Assembly (NCBI GenBank): GCA_965208325.1
Contig: OZ242326.1
Coordinates: 1,312,001 to 1,376,000 of the forward strand
Origin: Candidatus Poribacteria bacterium
Lineage (GTDB): Bacteria; Poribacteria; WGA-4E; PCPOR2b
Reading direction: 5' to 3'
DNA length: 64,000 bases
Both the position numbers and the translations under genes were made by a program. Within the stretch, counting starts at the first letter, position 1. The number at the start of each line of letters is the position of its first letter. Shown here one piece after another: positions 36,748 to 45,062 of this stretch. The notes below the pieces were generated by a model. It was not told the DNA's origin. It saw only the letters and a program-made list of their open reading frames with translations, and searched no databases.

Positions 36748-38076
36748 TTAGCCGACGAGCCATATATACCGCGCTACAAAAAGCACTGCGAACAGATAAA
36801 TCAGCCAGTGCACCTGCCGACCACGGCCGCTGACGAGTTTTAACAACGCATGCGAGATAAACCCGAATGCAATGCCTTCCGTGATGCTTATGGTTAGGGG
36901 CATCATCAACAGTGTCAGAAAGGCGGGGATGGATTCGGTGAAATCGTCCCAATCTATAGACACCACATTCTTCAGCATCAGACATCCGATGATAATTAGC
37001 GCCGGCGCGACCACCGGATACAGAATTGTATTTTCTCCAATTGCGTGTCCAGCCCCTACCATCTTTATTAGCGGGTTGAAAAACAGCGCGAACAGCATTA
37101 GAATTGCAGTAACGACGTTGGTTAAGCCGGTTCGTCCGCCGGCTGAAATCCCTGACGCACTCTCAATATAACTGGTGACGGTAGATGTACCGAGAAGCGC
37201 ACCGGTGCTGGTGGCGACCGCATCGGAAAACAGGGCGCGCCGCGCCCTCGGCAGCTTTCCATCAACCATTAAACCGGCTTGCTCGCCGACGCCGACCAGC
37301 GTTCCGACGGTATCGAAGAGATCCAAGAAGATAAAGATGAAGATTATAGCTATAAGCTCAGGATTCACGAAAATGTTGGGAATCTGGAGCTTGAAGAAGG
37401 TCGGCGCAATTGAAGGCGGTGCCGAAACAACGCCCTCGAACTTCACCTGCCCCGCAATGAGCCCGACAACAGACGTAGCCAGAATACCTATCAAGATAGC
37501 GCCGCCGACATTGCGAGCGAATAGAATCGCAACCACGACTAGTCCGAACAGCGACAACATCACGGGCGCCGATTTCAGGTTTCCGAGCGTGACATAGGTC
37601 GCCGGGTGGTCGACGATAAGCCCTGCCCACTCCAAACCCACAAGTGCAATCAATAACCCAATCCCAGCGGGAATGGCGTTCCTTAACGAAACCGGCAGAA
37701 CCCCCATCACCTTTTCGCGCAACCCGACAAAGGAGAGCAGGACAAACAACGCTCCCGCAATGAAAACTGCGCCGAGCGCTTGTTGCCACGCCACACCGAG
37801 CGTAAGACAAACCGTGTAGGTGAAATAGAAGTTATGTCCCATGCCCGGTGCGAGCGCAATGGGATAGTTGGCGAGGAATGCCATCAATAGCATCGCCAGC
37901 GCGCTGGTAATGCACGTCGCCGCCATCACGGCGCCGGAATCCATTCCCGCGGCTGAAAGCACTGCGGGTTGGACGAAAATAATGTACGAAAGTGTCATGA
38001 ACGTCGTACAGCCCGCAACAATTTCGCGTTTGACAGTCGTCCCGGATTCTTGTAACCGAAACAATCTTTCAAGCAT
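36748..38076 (-). CDS. NCS2/AzgA-family purine permease
   Basis: REIVAG.TTFMT.SYI, ALAPGMG, FDTVGT, YIESASGI..GGRTG, GIAFGFI. Confidence 0.93.
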   Translation of the reverse strand: MLERLFRLQESGTTVKREIVAGCTTFMTLSYIIFVQPAVLSAAGMDSGAVMAATCITSALAMLLMAFLANYPIALAPGMGHNFYFTYTVCLTLGVAWQQALGAVFIAGALFVLLSFVGLREKVMGVLPVSLRNAIPAGIGLLIALVGLEWAGLIVDHPATYVTLGNLKSAPVMLSLFGLVVVAILFARNVGGAILIGILATSVVGLIAGQVKFEGVVSAPPSIAPTFFKLQIPNIFVNPELIAIIFIFIFLDLFDTVGTLVGVGEQAGLMVDGKLPRARRALFSDAVATSTGALLGTSTVTSYIESASGISAGGRTGLTNVVTAILMLFALFFNPLIKMVGAGHAIGENTILYPVVAPALIIIGCLMLKNVVSIDWDDFTESIPAFLTLLMMPLTISITEGIAFGFISHALLKLVSGRGRQVHWLIYLFAVLFVARYIWLVG

Positions 38077-38356
38077 GCATCACCTTTTTAAATAGAATTC
38101 ATCTGACAGTGTAGAAATCTCCAAAATAGATTCGTTTTGAATTCCCTAAATTGTATTCGATTAAAATTTAGATTGCAAGCGTTAATTTACAGGTGTAAAT
38201 CCGGTAAAAAAACACGGTGACTGTAGGTCGGGTACATAGGTGTTTCTAAGCGGAGAAAACCACGGCACAAAAGCTACGGGATGTCTATGATTTCATTTGA
38301 TGATTGAGGATGGCAACGAAACGGAAATTGGCGATTTACCGGTGATCCGGTGTTGG

Positions 38357-38436
38357 TGGTTACCTTTTATGGAATTGCACCGGCCCGCTTGTGGTGCGGG
38401 TTCATTGAAATCGTAAGGTAACCAAAAGGTAACCAA
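38357..38436. repeat. 11-bp tandem direct repeat AAGGTAACCAA x2 (38415-38436) plus an inverted copy (38357-38368)
   Basis: Read directly; a further AGGTAACC lies at 38991 inside the next ORF. Confidence 0.6.
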
Positions 38437-38751
38437 GAAAAAAGATCTTTACGTCTTTCGATCGGATTGTTATGCTAATCATTTAGCAGTCATTATAGTA
38501 GAGATTTACGACTTTCACAGGCGGTGAATCGAATACAATGTTAAGGCAATCGAGAGGCGAACAGGTGAAGCATTTCACGGAAAAAGCTGGAGTTCAGGGA
38601 TTTTCAATTTATTGGTTTTTGGGTATGATTAAGCGTGCGAGTAGGGAACGATCAACCTAACGAATGGTGAGGGCGAAATCGTTCGCTCGCGATAGTTTTG
38701 GTGTCCGTGAAGACCAATTACAAATAATTTGTGCCAAGCAGACTTTTTTGT

Positions 38752-38780
38752 TTGACATTCGGCATTAGGTTGCGTATAAT
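38752..38780 (+). promoter_or_regulatory. Perfect sigma70 consensus promoter
   Basis: TTGACA (38752-57), 17-nt spacer, TATAAT (38775-80); TTGAA-CAA-TTCAA palindrome at 38783-38795. Confidence 0.85.
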
Positions 38781-38820
38781 AATTGAACAATTCAAATATG
38801 CGAGGGAGCGGCATCCGCGG

Positions 38821-38858
38821 GGGAGCGACATCCGCGAGGTGTCTCTCCCTTTTTTTTT
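38821..38858 (+). terminator. Intrinsic terminator inside the leader of the TerS-like gene
   Basis: GGGAGCGACATC-CGCGA-GGTGTCTCTCCC hairpin followed by T9. Confidence 0.75.
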
Positions 38859-38884
38859 GCTGTTAAAATTAGGAGGGTAAAGCA

Positions 38885-39319
38885 ATGGAAAATGGACGAT
38901 TGCCGGGGGAGACGGTGCTGGCGTACACCTATTTTGAGATGTATCGTGATGCGGGGGATGAGCGCTCGTTAGATGCGCTGAGCGGCCAAGAGGTAACCGG
39001 GAAAAGAAGGTCGGTTTCGATGATTAAGAAGTGGTCGGTGCAATATGATTGGGGCGATCGCGTTGCGGCATTCGATGCATCGGTAGCACGGCGCGCTGCA
39101 GACGCATTATTAAGGCGCCGGGCGTCTGAAATCGAAGCGTTTATTGAAACGGATATGAAAATTGCGTCGCGGGTTCAGGCGTTGTGCCTCAATCAACTTC
39201 AAGCGCTGGAAACCGAAACGGATATTGGCGAACTACGCCAACTGGTATTAACTTACAGAGAGGCGCGGCTATGGATGATGGAGCTCACGGGCGCGCTAGA
39301 GGAGGACATACAGCAATGA
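38885..39319 (+). CDS. Phage terminase-small-subunit-like HTH protein
   Basis: RLPGET..AY.YF..YRD.G.ERSL...KKWSVQYDW.DRV.AFD resembles phage TerS-like N-termini; SD AGGAGG. Confidence 0.6.
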   Translation: MENGRLPGETVLAYTYFEMYRDAGDERSLDALSGQEVTGKRRSVSMIKKWSVQYDWGDRVAAFDASVARRAADALLRRRASEIEAFIETDMKIASRVQALCLNQLQALETETDIGELRQLVLTYREARLWMMELTGALEEDIQQ

Positions 39320-40311
39320 GAAAGCGAAAGAAGTTTCATGAGGTGCGCTACCCGCAAAAAAGGGTATCGAATGGCCGAAATGCGGATACAGCGCCGTCCG
39401 GAACACCAACAGCGGAAACAAAAGACATCGAAGCCGGGTCAATGCCGCCGTGGGAGGATGCGGACACAACAGCATCCGACGCGGAAGAGTTCCGGACTTT
39501 GAGGATTAATGGTATCAATGCTCCGGACCGCGCCGATGTGATAGAAGTTGAAAACGGAAGGAAGTATTTTGACGGAAGTTGGATTGGACGCAAGATTGAC
39601 GATAATATAATCATCCTGACGGATATTGAGACGGGCTTTTTCAGGGAGTGTGTGGAGGCTGACAAAGGCGGCGGTTGGTATGGTAATTCTAACAGCCTTG
39701 ATTTAGAGAAATATGGGTTGGGGCCGCATGATAGAATTAGAACAGAGCACATTCCGCAGGTCGAGGAGGCGGAACGGGAAGACCTCCTTGTGAGGTTGAT
39801 ATATCGGAAAGCGTATCACCGCGCGACAGCTCACATCGCGGAATTCGGTAAATCCACCGAGATTTTAGTTCAGGAGTGTTGGTTTAAGTGTTATCTCCCC
39901 TGGCCTTGCCTTGAGAGGGACATTCCGCGTTCGGTTGAAGTTGCCAATAATATACTGCAAGAATTAGAACCGGAGGTTAACGAGCAGGTTAAAATAGTGC
40001 AACCTAAAATCAAAGCAGAGATGAAACTCAGGAAGGCGTCCGGGGAATATGACCTCACCGATTTGTTACTTGTACCGGATGGGGTCCCACAATGGACGAT
40101 GCTACCGAAGCCTTCCAACCGCGACGAGTTAAACGAGTTAGAGGCGTTTTATGAAGAAGATCGGGCGGCGGACCGCCGCGTCAAGGAGAAACAGGATGCG
40201 CGTGATCAGGGAAAGATAGGACCGATGGGGTCGTATAGCTTTCATGACGTGTGGGATAGAGAGACTACCTTGGAAGACTTACAGAAACGGGTGGCAGCAA
40301 GAGGATGGTAG
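39316..40311 (+). CDS. Hypothetical protein (331 aa), translationally coupled to the TerS-like gene
   Basis: ATGA overlap with the upstream stop and SD GGAGGA; long open frame; no recognisable motif. Confidence 0.7.
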   Translation: MRKRKKFHEVRYPQKRVSNGRNADTAPSGTPTAETKDIEAGSMPPWEDADTTASDAEEFRTLRINGINAPDRADVIEVENGRKYFDGSWIGRKIDDNIIILTDIETGFFRECVEADKGGGWYGNSNSLDLEKYGLGPHDRIRTEHIPQVEEAEREDLLVRLIYRKAYHRATAHIAEFGKSTEILVQECWFKCYLPWPCLERDIPRSVEVANNILQELEPEVNEQVKIVQPKIKAEMKLRKASGEYDLTDLLLVPDGVPQWTMLPKPSNRDELNELEAFYEEDRAADRRVKEKQDARDQGKIGPMGSYSFHDVWDRETTLEDLQKRVAARGW

Positions 40312-40363
40312 GTTTTTGGAGGATGGGCAAAACGGAGAAAATAGTAGATTCGACAAGTGCCGA

Positions 40364-42078
40364 GATTCGGAGATCGCTCCTACGGGAGGTTGGATTCCAG
40401 AATGCCAGCGGTAGGATTTGATGTCTGAACCGGGATTCGTGTGATTAAATGATGGGTTATGATTAAGGGCGCGCATAATTCTTCCGTGTTGGTACGGAAG
40501 GCGATTGGCTGTCGCTGAAGCTGCTGTGGGTTGGGTAGAGCAGATTTATACTAGAATTGCCCAGTCAAAAAATTTCAATGCCAACCTAACCGCATTCAAC
40601 AGTCAACGAGTGTAACGAAACCCGATGCTTTTTAAATATCTAGAGGTTTCAAAAGCGTTGGGTTTCGCTACACCAATATTGTGAAGGTCATCATAGGGAA
40701 TTTGGACAACGATCGGGTAAAGTAACGGTGTTGGCGTTATCCGCTCTACCCAACCTACAAAAACTGAATGCATCGTCGGGAATCGGAATTCCCTCCTCCC
40801 AGACTTCACCTTCCCATTGGAGCGATCTCCGAATCGCAACTCATAACTACGGTAAACCACACCCCTCAATTCCCCTTTATAAATGGCGGTTCATGCCAGA
40901 GTGATTTTACCTGTCGCCCCGCTGGGGCTTGTGAAATTTTTTTTACTCGTGTGCTATACACCTGTCGCGCCGCTGGCGCTTTTGCAACTGGGGTTGGGTT
41001 CACCATGACACGGCAGCTCTCCGGTTGATTTGCGCTGCGAAATCAGCCAAATACCTCAAAAGCGTTGGGTTTCGCTACGCCAATATTGTGAAGGTCATCG
41101 TAGGGAATTTGGACAACGATTGGGCAAAGTGACGGTGTTGGCGTTATCCGCTCTACCCAACCTACAAAAACTACAAGAACTGAATGAATCGTCGGGAATC
41201 GGAATTCCCTCCTACCAGAACTCATCTCCTCGTTGGGACGATCTCCATACCGCTACTCACAACTACGGTATACCACACCCCTCAAATCCCCCTTATAGCG
41301 ATGGATTCATTCCAGAGTGATTTACCTGTCGCCCCGCTGGCGCTTTTGCAACTGGGGTTGGGTTCACCATGACACGGCAGCTCTCCGGTTGATTTGCGCT
41401 GCGAAATCAGCCAAATACCTTAAAAACGTTGGGTTTCGCCATGCCAATATTGTGAAGGTCATCGTAGGGAAATTGGACAACGATTGGGCAAAGTGACGGT
41501 GTTGGCGTTATCCGCTCTACCCAACCTACAAGAGTGGAAGCGGTCGCGATTCGGAGATCGCTCCTACAAGGGATTGAATTCTAGAATGCCGGCGATAGGA
41601 TTTGATGTCTGAACTGTGATTGGTGTGATTAAATGATGGGCTATGATTAAGGGAGCATAAAAGCAGTCGGTGCGAGCGGGGAAGGCGATTGGCTGTCGCT
41701 TAAGCTGCTGTAGGTTGGGTAGAGCGGATTCATACTTGAATTGACCAGTCAAAAAACCTCAATGCCAACCAACCGCATCCAACAGCCAACGAGTGTAACG
41801 AAACCCGACGCTTTTCTAAAATCTAGAGGTTTCAAAAGCGTTGGGTTTCGCTATGCCAATATTGTGAAGATCATCGTAAGGGAATTGGACAACGATTGGG
41901 TGAAGCGACGGTGTTGGCGTTATCCGCTCTACCCAACCTACAAGAGTGGAAGCGGTCGCGATTCGGAGATCGCTCCTACAAGGGATTGAATTCTAGAATG
42001 CCGGCGGTAGGATTGATGTCTGAATTGTGATTCGTGTGATTTAATGATGGGCTATGATTACCTGCTCTACCCAACCTA
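40364..42078. repeat. Modular array of REP/REPIN-like elements
   Basis: 108-bp module at 40651, 41058, 41422 and 41834; GATTCGGAGATCGCTCCTAC at 40364, 41548 and 41960; ~395-bp and ~350-400-bp internal duplications. Confidence 0.92.
41709..41942. mobile_element. REPIN/MITE-like element with 21-bp terminal inverted repeats (degenerate copy at 40526-40758)
   Basis: TGTAGGTTGGGTAGAGCGGAT ... ATCCGCTCTACCCAACCTACA, with an inner inverted pair CGAAACCCGACGCTTTT / AAAAGCGTTGGGTTTCG. Confidence 0.7.
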
Positions 42079-42130
42079 AAAAGACTGCACTCTCGTGAAT
42101 CTAACGCCTGGCTACACGTCCTCTCATCAA

Positions 42131-43324
42131 TCACGCCGATCTTTTTGCCCGTGTGGATTCAATAAGAAAGTAAAGGCTATAGAGAAAATTCGGGAATTTG
42201 TATTCTCCCCGATTCTGGGTAGTAGTAAGCGCACCGAGCTGTCTCATGCGTTTAAGAAAAGAGTCAAGGACATTTAATTCGCCGTTCGACAATCCTAAGT
42301 TATCGATTATCTCTTTTCGTGTAAAAAGTAGCCTGCGTTTGTCCGCCAGTTTTCGCAGAATAGAGCGGTATGTGTCATTTTGAATGCCGCGAAAAATTTG
42401 CGGTTCTATCCATTTTGTCCCAACAACATCGGCGGCATCGAATATGCCATCACTTACCGCTTCTTCGTCAAGTTCCAAAGTCGGCGCAGCGCGCCATATA
42501 GCATGACCAATTTCATGCGCCAATACGGGATGCCCGCCCGTAAAAGATACAAGCCTATTTAATTGCTCGGTTTCAATTCTGGCTTTAGTGGAATCGAATG
42601 CGCGTTCGTAAAACTCTCTAGCCTCTGCATCCGACCAGCGAGAAATATCAACAATGTCAAAAATGCGGGCTATGGAAGGATTATTCGCAATCATCTCTTG
42701 GCGTCTCTCCTCTAATCCGACTATAAAAATACAAAGAGGAATGGGGCTTTTCGCGAGCGCAAATTTGTCCACTGTGCTCTTTAACCAATGCGCGAATTGT
42801 GTGGACGAGGCGAGACCGTTAATGTCGTCCAAAATAAGCAGCAGCCCTTTCGCGTGCCGATTTAGCGCTTCCAACAAACCCGTCATGTTTGTTACAAAAT
42901 GCTCGGTAATTGATGATATTTCATCATCCCCTAAATTTAACTCCAGCGAGAGACCGAAAGCGCCTACCTTCTTGATTTTATTGTCAACGAAATTACGGAT
43001 TGTCTGATGCCAGGGGGTTTTTATGCTTTCGTTAACCAACTCATTGAGTATCTTTTTCATCATCTCATCTAACGCATTAACGCCACCAAGTAAAGTATGG
43101 CACCCAACGATATTGTGTTCGCGGTCCGATAGTATTCGCACTACATCAGCAATTGAACTTTTACCGATACCGCGTTCACCGCTAATAAATGCAATTTTTA
43201 ACCGCGCTTGACCCGCACTTGCTTGCGCCAGCCCGCGCAAATGTTCAATTTCCCCGTTGCGGCCAACAAAAAACTCGAACGGTACTGGCACTCCCGGACT
43301 GAATGGGCTTGACTCAATATCCAC
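42131..43324 (-). CDS. Stand-alone STAND/AAA_16-like P-loop ATPase with C-terminal winged helix
   Basis: SPFSPG.P...FVGR..EI, Walker A GERGIGKSS, Walker B LLLILDD, TGGHP; GTG start after GGAGG (alternative ATG at 43375). Confidence 0.85.
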   Translation of the reverse strand: MDIESSPFSPGVPVPFEFFVGRNGEIEHLRGLAQASAGQARLKIAFISGERGIGKSSIADVVRILSDREHNIVGCHTLLGGVNALDEMMKKILNELVNESIKTPWHQTIRNFVDNKIKKVGAFGLSLELNLGDDEISSITEHFVTNMTGLLEALNRHAKGLLLILDDINGLASSTQFAHWLKSTVDKFALAKSPIPLCIFIVGLEERRQEMIANNPSIARIFDIVDISRWSDAEAREFYERAFDSTKARIETEQLNRLVSFTGGHPVLAHEIGHAIWRAAPTLELDEEAVSDGIFDAADVVGTKWIEPQIFRGIQNDTYRSILRKLADKRRLLFTRKEIIDNLGLSNGELNVLDSFLKRMRQLGALTTTQNRGEYKFPNFLYSLYFLIESTRAKRSA

Positions 43325-43560
43325 GTGAAATACCTCCGTTAAATCCCGATCCTGCAGATGCCAAACTCTCACCATTTTCTACATGCAATTGCCACCCGGC
43401 AATCGTAAATTCTATCATAGACGTTGCTAGTCTACAAGGTTGAATGTACTCCCAATGTTGAAACATTCATGATTGTCCATTAGAGTGTAAGGGCGGGGTG
43501 AATTTGGTTCACAGAGAGGGCTATAGGAAAACTACCGCCCTCCCTATTCGGTCGGTTGAT

Positions 43561-43790
43561 CGTTGGGTTTGGCTATGCCAACACTGTGAAGGTCATCGTA
43601 GGGAAATTGGACAACGATTGGGTGAAGTGACGGTGTTGGTGTTATCCGCTCTACCCAACCTACAAGAGTGGAAGCGGCCGCGATTCGGAGATCGCTCTTA
43701 CAGGGGGTTGTGTGGTTATATTAGATAGGAGGGAATTTCGATTCCCGACGACGGGTTCAGTTCTGGTAAGTTGGGTAGCGCGGATTCATC
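43561..43790. repeat. Second cluster of the same REP modules
   Basis: 103 bp of the 108-bp module (43561-43663), GATTCGGAGATCGCTCTTAC (43682-43701), inverted TAGGAGGGAATTTCGATTCCC and GTTGGGTAGCGCGGAT. Confidence 0.88.
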
Positions 43791-43821
43791 CAAAAATCGC
43801 AGGTTACAAAGAAACACCGTG

Positions 43822-44118
43822 TTAATCTTCGGTAAAGGATGTCGTTCGAGGCCGAACAACTTTATAGACAGTTTCACCGGGTTTGATAAAACCGAATCGC
43901 CGTACGAGGCGCTCTTGGTCGAGTTCGTCGGTCTGGAGTTTTTCGACTCTCGTTCTCAGGCGATCCCTTTTCAATTCAAGCGCGCTCAACTCGTCTAAAT
44001 ACTCCTGTTTAATCTGACGCGCTTTCTGCCAATTCTGATATTCACCGACGAACCGATAAGCACTGATGATTAAGACGGGAAATGTGATGATTAACAGCCA
44101 AGATTGAAGAAATCGCAT
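43822..44118 (-). CDS. ftsB: Septum formation initiator (FtsB/DivIC family)
   Basis: Single TM helix, coiled coil, ERLVRRFGFIKPGETVY motif. Confidence 0.75.
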   Translation of the reverse strand: MRFLQSWLLIITFPVLIISAYRFVGEYQNWQKARQIKQEYLDELSALELKRDRLRTRVEKLQTDELDQERLVRRFGFIKPGETVYKVVRPRTTSFTED

Positions 44119-44132
44119 GAGGATGGTTTAGA

Positions 44133-44258
44133 ATAATGAGTAATGCGTAATGCGTAATGAGTAATGCGTAATGAGTAAGGGGTAATAAGTAAGGGGTAAT
44201 AAGTAAGGGGTAATAAGTAAGGGGTAATGAGTAAGGGGTAATGAGTAAGGGGTAATGA
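44133..44258. repeat. Heptamer tandem repeat, 18 units of GTAA(TGA/TGC/GGG/TAA)
   Basis: Exact 7-bp period over 126 bp filling the map-ftsB gap. Confidence 0.97.
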
Positions 44259-44264
44259 TCGTGG

Positions 44265-45062
44265 TTAGTGAGAATTTGATCCCCAGAGGTCATGATTATC
44301 TGTAAGAATTTCCGGGCCTTCGGGGAGAATTGCGACGGTATGTTCGAATAGCGCAGAAATGCGCCGATCGGCCGTGACTGCTGTCCAGCCATCTTCGAGC
44401 GTTTCAGATTCGTGTGTACCTGCATTGGTCATGGCTTCGATGGCGAGGACTGTACCGGGCCTTAATCGAACGCCTCTGCCGGGTTCTCCGTAATTGGGAA
44501 CCTGAGGCTCCTCGTGTAAATTTCGCCCAATCCCGTGACCAACAAAATCTCGAACTACTGAGAATCCGTGACTTTCCACATGGGTTTGCAATGCGGAACA
44601 GGCGTCGCCGAGCCGACTTCCCGGCTTTGCGGCGTCAATTGCTTTATAGAGTGCGTTTTTGGAGACTTCCAGTAGACTTTGCGCTTCCGGTTCAATGTCT
44701 CCGACAGGAAACGTGTACGCATTATCCCCATGAAATCCATTGAGATAGACTGCGGTGTCAATTCCAATAATGTCGCCCTCTTTTAGAATACAGTCCTTCC
44801 TTGGAATGCCATGAACAATTTCCTCGTTAATTGAAACGCAAATGGTCGCTGGATATGGCGGGTGATGCGGAAGTTGATACCCCAAAAACGATGAAATACC
44901 GCCAAGTTTCTTAATGGCTTCCCGGGAGATTTGATCCAATTCGTAAGTTGAAATACCGGGACTTACAGCTTCTCCGATTGTTTGAAGCACAATCGACGCG
45001 GCTTTTCCGCTGCGCCGCATTGTCTCGATTTCAGACCGGGACTTAATTCTGACTTTATTCAT
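44265..45062 (-). CDS. map: Type I methionine aminopeptidase
   Basis: CVSINEEIVHGIP, GFHGD, VGHGIG..LHEEP, AIEAM, FEHT. Confidence 0.96.
   Translation of the reverse strand: MNKVRIKSRSEIETMRRSGKAASIVLQTIGEAVSPGISTYELDQISREAIKKLGGISSFLGYQLPHHPPYPATICVSINEEIVHGIPRKDCILKEGDIIGIDTAVYLNGFHGDNAYTFPVGDIEPEAQSLLEVSKNALYKAIDAAKPGSRLGDACSALQTHVESHGFSVVRDFVGHGIGRNLHEEPQVPNYGEPGRGVRLRPGTVLAIEAMTNAGTHESETLEDGWTAVTADRRISALFEHTVAILPEGPEILTDNHDLWGSNSH

Follow-up and report, generated by a model that had tools for sequence, protein, structure and literature searches.

A small-terminase-like gene and its exchangeable partner genes at phage-free loci in Candidatus Poribacteria

A stretch of 64 kb (positions 1312001-1376000 of the single 4.71-Mb contig C1) was analysed from the chromosome of a Candidatus Poribacteria sponge symbiont, genome G000; this whole stretch is referred to below as the window, and positions are counted from its first base. 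It contains two genes on the plus strand, of which gene 1 (P0001, 38885-39319, 144 aa) encodes a homologue of the small terminase subunit (TerS) of phages, with an N-terminal helix-turn-helix (HTH)-like domain followed by long helices, and gene 2 (P0002, 39316-40311, 331 aa) encodes an orphan partner protein. The ATG of gene 2 (39316-39318) lies on the TGA of gene 1 (39317-39319), which gives a 4-nt ATGA overlap. Each gene is preceded by a Shine-Dalgarno (SD) sequence, GGAGGG at 38872-38877 (7 nt 5' of ATG 38885) for gene 1 and GAGGAGGA at 39299-39306 (9 nt 5' of ATG 39316) for gene 2. An in-frame ATG at 39271, 45 nt upstream, could serve as an alternative start of gene 2 and gives the 346-aa form present in some database entries (P0023); the overlap would then be 49 nt instead of 4. 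The pair is flanked on the left by a gene for a xanthine/uracil-type permease (36748-38076) and on the right by a gene for an AAA_16 NTPase (42131-43375), both on the minus strand. A preliminary description of this window had noted a two-gene operon running against the direction of the adjoining genes, with an ATGA overlap and strong SDs, and the coordinates, overlap and SD sequences found here agree with it.

Upstream of gene 1 a sigma-70-type promoter could be identified at 38752-38780 on the plus strand (TTGACA-17 nt-TATAAT), matching all 12 consensus positions. It is the only one of five promoter-like sites in 38000-40700 to do so (shuffled sequences gave a mean of 3.9 sites at the 9/12 threshold), and both copies of the module in genome G003 have an equivalent upstream promoter (TTGACA/TTGACT-N17-TATACT/TATAAT). 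Between promoter and SD, the same strand has a leader hairpin and, behind it, a stretch of nine T residues (38799-38857), with a predicted RNA fold of -37.1 kcal/mol (z -3.16; equally stable in 2 of 200 shuffles), and a terminator scan names 38827-38843 plus tail within it. This leader looks like a terminator or an attenuator. The same hairpin with T-run recurs in the two G003 copies, and the derivative copies described below have it at their 5' end; several copies from family f3 also have a hairpin with T-run about 90-100 nt upstream. The preliminary description had asked whether the leader recurs elsewhere, and the whole promoter-hairpin-SD arrangement is conserved in three of three copies from genus g1. 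A search of 37500-44500 against Rfam gave only a chance-level match to rox1 (E 0.015, far under the gathering score). This strong promoter and the hairpin/U-run leader drive gene 1 and the translationally coupled gene 2.

The surroundings of the pair are those of an ordinary chromosome. Of the 42 open reading frames (ORFs) of the window scanned with Pfam, every recognisable one is a housekeeping gene (EF-G, ilvD, H+-PPase, MurJ, SHMT, GltX, PFK, Map, MiaB, Era and DnaA-like genes are among them) and the rest are unassigned; integrase, portal, capsid or terminase genes were not found among them. ARAGORN identified no tRNA gene in the window, and a repeat search found no direct repeats bracketing the pair and no att-like flanks. 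The remark in the preliminary description that integrase, portal and capsid genes are missing thus holds for the window, and it also holds for the surroundings of the pair in related genomes. Its suggestion of a minimal satellite remnant is not supported, in view of the lack of integrase, att-like repeats and tRNA genes, the selection acting on the genes and the recurrence of the two-gene unit (see below).

The assignment of gene 1 as a TerS-like HTH protein is well supported by sequence profiles. In the PHROGs database it matches phrog_6299, annotated as 'terminase small subunit', with an E-value of 1e-16 over residues 5-114, while it belongs to no family in Pfam, NCBIfam or PADLOC. The sole tblastn match in 50,697 phage records is a weak one (40.7% over residues 5-58 of gene 1), to MT839647.1. 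In that record a member of phrog_6299 (E 1e-32) overlaps the gene for the large terminase subunit (TerL; phrog_2, E 2e-44) by 4 nt, and the portal gene (phrog_12) comes next, so that this member holds the canonical TerS position. Alignment by hhalign of a 36-sequence gene-1 profile with this phage protein gave a probability of 98.3% (E 2e-14, 113 columns), and the phage ORF itself has a weak match to NCBIfam TerS_not_xtmA (E 1.6e-6, under the cut-off). The nearest clusters of gene 1 in the ESM Atlas are mostly viral. No close relatives were found in IMG/VR, and the gene-1 profile gave nothing below E 0.8 against the sequences of the PDB. Taken by its sequence, gene 1 is a bona fide homologue of phage TerS. 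An AlphaFold2 (AF2) model of the monomer (pLDDT 86.6) predicts an HTH-like domain at residues 11-53, a helix of 55 residues and a second long helix; a VIA wide fold search with gene 1 returned generic helical hairpins only (Z ~8).

Gene 2 has no recognisable family. A pattern scan found no Walker A, CxxC or HNH-like motif, and searches of Pfam, PHROGs, PADLOC and NCBIfam assigned it to no family (one weak PHROG match, E 0.009). A word-indexed search yielded 19 relatives, and an exhaustive hidden Markov model (HMM) search of 1.84 billion representatives only 6 matches, all of them members of its own family or fragments. Judged by these motif and family searches gene 2 is not a TerL, as had been proposed. 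The N-terminus of the protein carries the motif MRKRKKFHEVRYP, for which the family alignment (A2) gives the consensus MRKRKKFHE[VL]RYP. A variable linker, probably disordered, separates this motif from a well-conserved body characterized by the stretches LTDIETGFF, GGGWYG and CWFKCYLPWxCLxRD. The AF2 model obtained from 15 sequences was unusable (pLDDT 45), the ESM Atlas held no usable match, and no PDB sequence matched the profiles of gene 2 and of the c2 partner below E 0.8.

Relatives of P0001 were found in 15 of 41 close relatives, with at most five matches per genome, and none in G001, a member of the same genus. Across the phylum, gene-1 homologues occur in 36 of 176 genomes and in 9 of 31 genera (at most seven matches per genome), namely in 11/28 genomes of family f1, 13/112 of f2, 10/11 of f3 and 1/7 of f4, and in 0/17 of families f5-f11. 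A single-protein locus search with gene 1 retrieved four loci, all from Poribacteria and from complete metagenome-assembled chromosomes. The distribution of the module is patchy, multi-copy and restricted to Poribacteria.

Inspection of 21 gene-1 loci with 17-20 kb of context showed the same design in all of them: a TerS-like gene is followed by an overlapping partner ORF or is fused to one. The recurrence of the pair at other loci and genomes, which the preliminary description had put forward as a check, is therefore clear, and it is not confined to prophages. The partners fall into groups of very different length, comprising the P0002 type, a type of about 310 aa (eight loci), types of 295, 289/192 and 248 aa, a 125-aa type in four syntenic genomes of genus g5, and types of 118 and 151 aa, in addition to two fusions of 418 aa (L036) and 436 aa (L041). 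The partner bodies are unrelated families. When the P0002 family is aligned with the ~310-aa family by hhalign, the first 18 residues align and nothing else. A peptide consisting of a basic run and [FL][HG]xxRYP is present at the N-terminus of 12 of the 19 unfused partners, as judged by a regular expression, and the same pattern occurs at the junction of one of the two fusions, the other having a degenerate form. One N-terminal motif in front of unrelated bodies is less suggestive of a packaging enzyme than of an adaptor-plus-effector design. That the partner is swappable could not be seen from the single stretch of DNA available to the preliminary description. We also considered whether the motif mimics the N-terminus of TerL, and rejected this: the TerL beside the phrog_6299 member in MT839647.1, the one phage TerL inspected, does not have it.

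The loci are free of phage genes throughout. None of 149 neighbour proteins at the 21 loci (proteins of at least 90 aa, at most 3.8 kb from the gene-1 homologue) matched a head/packaging, tail, lysis or integration PHROG. Housekeeping neighbours include GlmS, NusA, RsmE, PepA, a DnaE-type polymerase and UvrA, and methyltransferase or restriction-type genes adjoin the module in five loci (L024, L026, L034, L035 and L037). Four Pfam families were searched genome-wide, and the negatives apply to these families only and not to other capsid or terminase families: among the 41 relatives, TerL PF03354 occurs in none, TerL PF03237 in one, which lacks the module, HK97 capsid PF05065 in three and portal PF04860 in one, and none of the four is found in G000. 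Accordingly, the capsid, portal and TerL genes that a gene transfer agent (GTA) would have elsewhere in the genome were not found in G000 for the four families searched.

Two further kinds of genes recur next to particular types of the module. In four of the eight loci of the ~310-aa type a DprA-like protein of about 210-230 aa (PF02481; PADLOC PsyrA, E 6e-19) is encoded 1-2 kb downstream (L026:12682-13308, L028:5584-6237, L030:10472-11170 and L033:6017-6673). In two genomes of genus g11 a paralog of the DnaE-type polymerase III alpha subunit of about 1040 aa (L027:4250-7357 and L029:9633-12779) lies directly upstream, together with two small conserved ORFs; these genes may constitute an error-prone polymerase cassette.

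Comparison of the copies in G000, G002 and G003 by the Nei-Gojobori method put omega at 0.18-0.21 in gene 1 and at 0.26-0.35 in gene 2. Purifying selection acts on both genes, and the dN/dS check proposed earlier gives no sign of neutral decay. The module is thus intact, selected and self-contained, with no TerL, integrase or phage structural genes nearby. The pair is also found at the syntenic site of G002, the closest relative, where flanks and gene 1 are 92% identical to G000 until about 55 nt into gene 2, whereas identity drops to 78% in the body of gene 2. The dS values at this site are 0.26 for gene 1 and 0.96 for gene 2. This gap, together with the break in identity just behind the motif, indicates that the body of gene 2 has been replaced by recombination. 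The two paralogs of G003 differ by a dS of about 0.64, from which it follows that paralogs within one genome are old.

In G001 and G003 the homology ends at about 38260 on the left and returns at about 43816 on the right, and the flanks are not adjacent, which makes the locus a synteny breakpoint; the flanks are far apart or inverted in these genomes, in G003 at a distance of 25 kb and in opposite orientation. An empty-site comparison with G001 and G003 showed composite repeat blocks that differ and no clean element boundaries. The AAA_16 gene and its surrounding repeats (~40760-43561) are missing from the syntenic site of G002, indicating that this gene is a separate insertion and not a member of the pair. 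Its product, an AAA_16/ATPase_2 NTPase of 414 aa, has weak similarity to Orc1/Cdc6-like proteins and to TOMM kinase/cyclase NTPases. Repeats that are dispersed over the genome fill 40361-42100, between gene 2 and the AAA_16 gene, and 43480-43820, between the AAA_16 gene and ftsB; their units recur every ~364-412 nt, reach up to about 34 genome copies per 100-nt bin and carry a recurring GTAGGTTGGGTAGAGCGGAT-type motif in both orientations. Further to the right, at 44120-44273 between ftsB/divIC and the methionine aminopeptidase gene, lies a tandem array of about 11 heptamers (TAATGAG, TAATGCG, TAAGGGG, TAATAAG).

Left of the pair, at 38307-38676 on the plus strand, lies a non-coding copy derived from the 5' part of a gene-1 paralog, one of a small dispersed family. 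A blastn search of the own genome found five long and several short derivative copies; about seven copies in G000 are 75-84% alike. Matches to the derivative family number nine in G000, seven in G002, four in G003 and none in G001. Full derivatives begin like gene 1, with hairpin and T-run, SD and ATGGAAAATGG, and seven of seven translated G000 copies have the same in-frame stop. Across 14 copies a core of about 100 nt stands out, with columns conserved at 83-95% against 50-80% for the flanks. This core contains three GGTWACC motifs, at 38358, 38417 and 38428, and a fourth is located at 38992 inside gene 1, in agreement with the GGTAACC repeats listed previously; as to their recurrence, the core was found in 14 copies. 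An 11-bp inverted repeat of the core (GGTTACCTTTT/AAAAGGTAACC) is invariant, with essentially no covariation in RNAalifold over the 14 copies, and for that reason an RNA structure and a protein-binding DNA site are not separable for the core. In the functional genes of G003 two adjacent GGTAACC sequences are codons of GNxEVTGKK; the conservation of GGTWACC in non-coding copies needs an explanation beyond these codons. Arrays of GGTWACC were seen in loci of genus g1 only. The second G003 copy is preceded, at a distance of about 690 nt, by a similar remnant. In addition, an internal-deletion derivative (G000:C1:3304652-3305064; L061/L003) joins the leader and the 5' core to the final 176 nt of gene 2; its translation retains 72% identity to residues 278-331 of P0002, and it has a collinear counterpart in G002 (3468778-3469211).

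We propose that gene 1 encodes a DNA-binding scaffold of TerS origin onto which interchangeable effectors dock, and that the pair forms a toxin-antitoxin (TA)-like or defence-like module; this is an inference, to which we would give a probability of roughly 40%. A TerS-derived protein would have been recruited as a DNA-binding, oligomerising scaffold, the HTH domain of which may recognise its own control region, the conserved GGTWACC arrays, or both. The helices of the protein could dock the conserved N-terminal peptide of gene 2, and docking would either restrain the interchangeable effector or bring it to DNA. The logic would be that of a type II TA or an abortive-infection/defence pair with swappable effectors, and a TerS-like surface would seem well suited to sense or to compete with the packaging machinery of an infecting phage. 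An adaptor-plus-effector conflict module fits best because of the conserved DNA-binding, coiled-coil first protein, the translationally coupled second protein with its shared peptide, the swappable bodies, the fusions, the patchy multi-copy spread, the pseudogenes and the restriction-modification (RM) neighbours. A more specific version appears doubtful to us, namely a phage-independent conflict system of a new defence or addiction class, in which a DNA-bound, oligomeric TerS hub on GGTWACC arrays, both upstream of its own gene and in the dispersed chromosomal copies, would dock orphan effectors through [FL][HG]xxRYP, with bodies recombined behind the motif and released or activated when phage packaging engages the hub.

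Several observations weigh against the scaffold and effector model. Binding of gene 2 to gene 1 is suggested solely by the motif and the fusions, and the motif is missing in 7 of the 19 unfused partners, four of these seven being orthologs of one 125-aa family. Neither gene 2 nor any other partner has a known toxin, nuclease or defence domain in Pfam, NCBIfam or PADLOC, and PADLOC in particular assigned no family to P0001, P0002 and six further partner types. The association with RM genes has no random-locus control, and these genomes may be RM-rich anyway. A simple TA model does not account for the conserved non-coding derivatives. As for gene 1, the profile and fold check that had been proposed came out divided: hhalign linked it to the phage protein, but Foldseek against the PDB found no significant TerS structure (nothing at E <= 1e-3; Sf6 gp1 ranked tenth, E 4.6), and the best matches in BFVD were uncharacterised Caudovirales proteins (E 3e-3 to 7e-2). 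TerS membership of gene 1 consequently rests on sequence profiles and not on fold, since the structure searches recovered no solved TerS structure at a significant level.

An ordinary lineage-specific regulator pair, i.e. a TerS/MerR-like HTH factor co-transcribed with a cellular protein and with no role in conflict or mobility, would be in line with the purifying selection on both genes, the housekeeping neighbours, the conserved neighbourhood in which four g5 genomes keep the 125-aa-partner version, and the lack of toxin or defence domains in PADLOC and NCBIfam. We regard it as unlikely: the pair is patchy within its genus, being absent from G001, it occurs with multi-copy paralogs, pseudogenes and deletion derivatives, unrelated partner bodies stand behind one motif, and an allele has been swapped at a syntenic site. 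Patchiness, multiple copies and swaps are hallmarks of accessory or selfish genes rather than of core regulators. Quite improbable in our view is an autonomous or once-autonomous mobile element, a unit of about 1.5 kb (~38821-40335) with gene 1 as DNA-binding subunit, gene 2 as a recombinase or transposase of a new kind and the derivatives as non-autonomous copies resembling miniature inverted-repeat transposable elements. Homology to paralogs and to four derivatives does start recurrently at 38820-38821 and end at 40314-40335, the seven translated G000 derivatives share a frameshift as well as their stop, suggesting that a non-coding template was multiplied, and one copy has lost its interior, retaining the 5' end, the core and the end of gene 2. 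Moreover, derivatives and pair occur together in G000, G002 and G003 and are both absent from G001, the locus is at a synteny breakpoint, and a first ORF with HTH and coiled coil, an overlapping second ORF and fusions recall the organisation of IS3-type insertion sequences (IS). However, neither Pfam nor NCBIfam yielded a transposase or recombinase family, and no terminal inverted repeats turned up at 38821/40335 in the repeat search. Within one genome the copies diverged long ago (dS ~0.6 in G003; derivatives 75-84% alike) and so give no sign of recent transposition, most G000 derivatives appear to have collinear counterparts in G002, and a variable catalytic partner beside a conserved HTH protein is the reverse of what is seen in IS families.

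Since gene 1 is by sequence a true TerS homologue, a role in packaging has to be weighed too, in which it would read the dispersed GGTWACC arrays as pac-like sites and either divert the TerL of an infecting phage (decoy or interference) or promote packaging of host DNA, as in transduction or GTA-like transfer; a packaging-interference decoy or a DNA-transfer module had been suggested in the preliminary description. The core with its three invariant GGTWACC motifs, kept in 14 copies far above the flanks, would suit such a role, and it derives from the 5' region of gene 1; phage TerS genes often contain their own pac site, and cosB of phage lambda has three repeated TerS-binding sites. Yet the four families searched for TerL, portal and capsid gave no match in G000, so that packaging would hinge on unknown infecting phages, and phage databases offer no close relative in IMG/VR and one weak match in 50,697 records. 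The arrays are limited to g1 loci, the variable partner and the docking motif would be left unexplained, and the phage TerL next to the phrog_6299 member has no such motif at its N-terminus. A packaging role therefore has a low probability in our judgement. Lastly, an isolated TerS-like gene with pseudogenised fragments elsewhere in the genome might be what is left of a neutrally decaying prophage or satellite. This is very improbable in view of the intact frames and omega values of 0.2-0.35, the maintenance of the pair at the syntenic site of G002 and in the paralogous copies of G003, the two-gene design at 21 of 21 loci without phage genes, and the lack of integrase and tRNA genes in the window scans; we reject it, because the module is under selection, recurs and has no phage genes around it.

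Small terminases are familiar components of the packaging machines of phages, satellites and GTAs, and to our knowledge the stand-alone TerS genes described so far belong to satellites or GTAs. Full-text literature searches for Poribacteria terminases, orphan small terminases and packaging interference, made at the level of listings, gave no description of the present module. If a TerS homologue under selection recurs in about one fifth of the genomes of a phylum, and terminase, portal and capsid genes are nearly missing from these genomes, this would clearly exemplify the recruitment of a packaging protein to another cellular or conflict role; here it is always coupled to a partner. The combination of hub, peptide motif and effector is a concrete and testable design, and the partners would represent uncharacterised effector families in unculturable sponge symbionts, the accessory biology of which is poorly known. 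If the pair serves ordinary regulation, the value of these data would be limited to the annotation of a lineage-specific family.

Compared with phage TerS (phrog_6299), gene 1 is homologous over residues 3-120, i.e. the HTH-like domain and the start of the long helices, and it is likewise the first gene of a pair in which the second overlaps by 4 nt. It differs in that the downstream gene is no TerL, having no Walker A, nuclease pattern or homologues outside its family, and in being chromosomal, multi-copy and restricted to Poribacteria, with no portal, capsid or prophage at the locus. The TerS and packaging-interference proteins of satellites, such as TerS of phage-inducible chromosomal islands (PICI) and Staphylococcus aureus pathogenicity islands (SaPI), Ppi, and Rpp of cf-PICI, are likewise found outside complete phages. 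Satellites, however, carry integrase, regulation and replication modules and att flanks, whereas the window scans found no integrase, regulatory or replication domains, tRNA or flanking repeats, and the genomes show no evident helper-phage machinery. The module is a TerS-family protein in a phage-independent modular context and lacks the defining features of satellites and, for the four families searched, those of GTAs. IS3-type elements, in which orfA encodes HTH and leucine zipper, orfB overlaps it and an orfAB fusion is formed, are similar in layout, fused forms and dispersed short derivatives; the module differs from them in showing neither a DDE/rve nor any other transposase domain, and in lacking near-identical copies and inverted repeats at its ends. 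Type II TA systems with a promiscuous antitoxin (Panacea/PanA) share with it an operon of two overlapping genes, the first of them for a small DNA-binding protein, a conserved first component with unrelated second components, and a patchy, multi-copy occurrence with decayed copies. The first component here is, in contrast, a TerS homologue and not a known antitoxin domain, and the partners share a docking-like motif and are sometimes fused to the first component; a stable fusion of toxin and antitoxin would be unusual.

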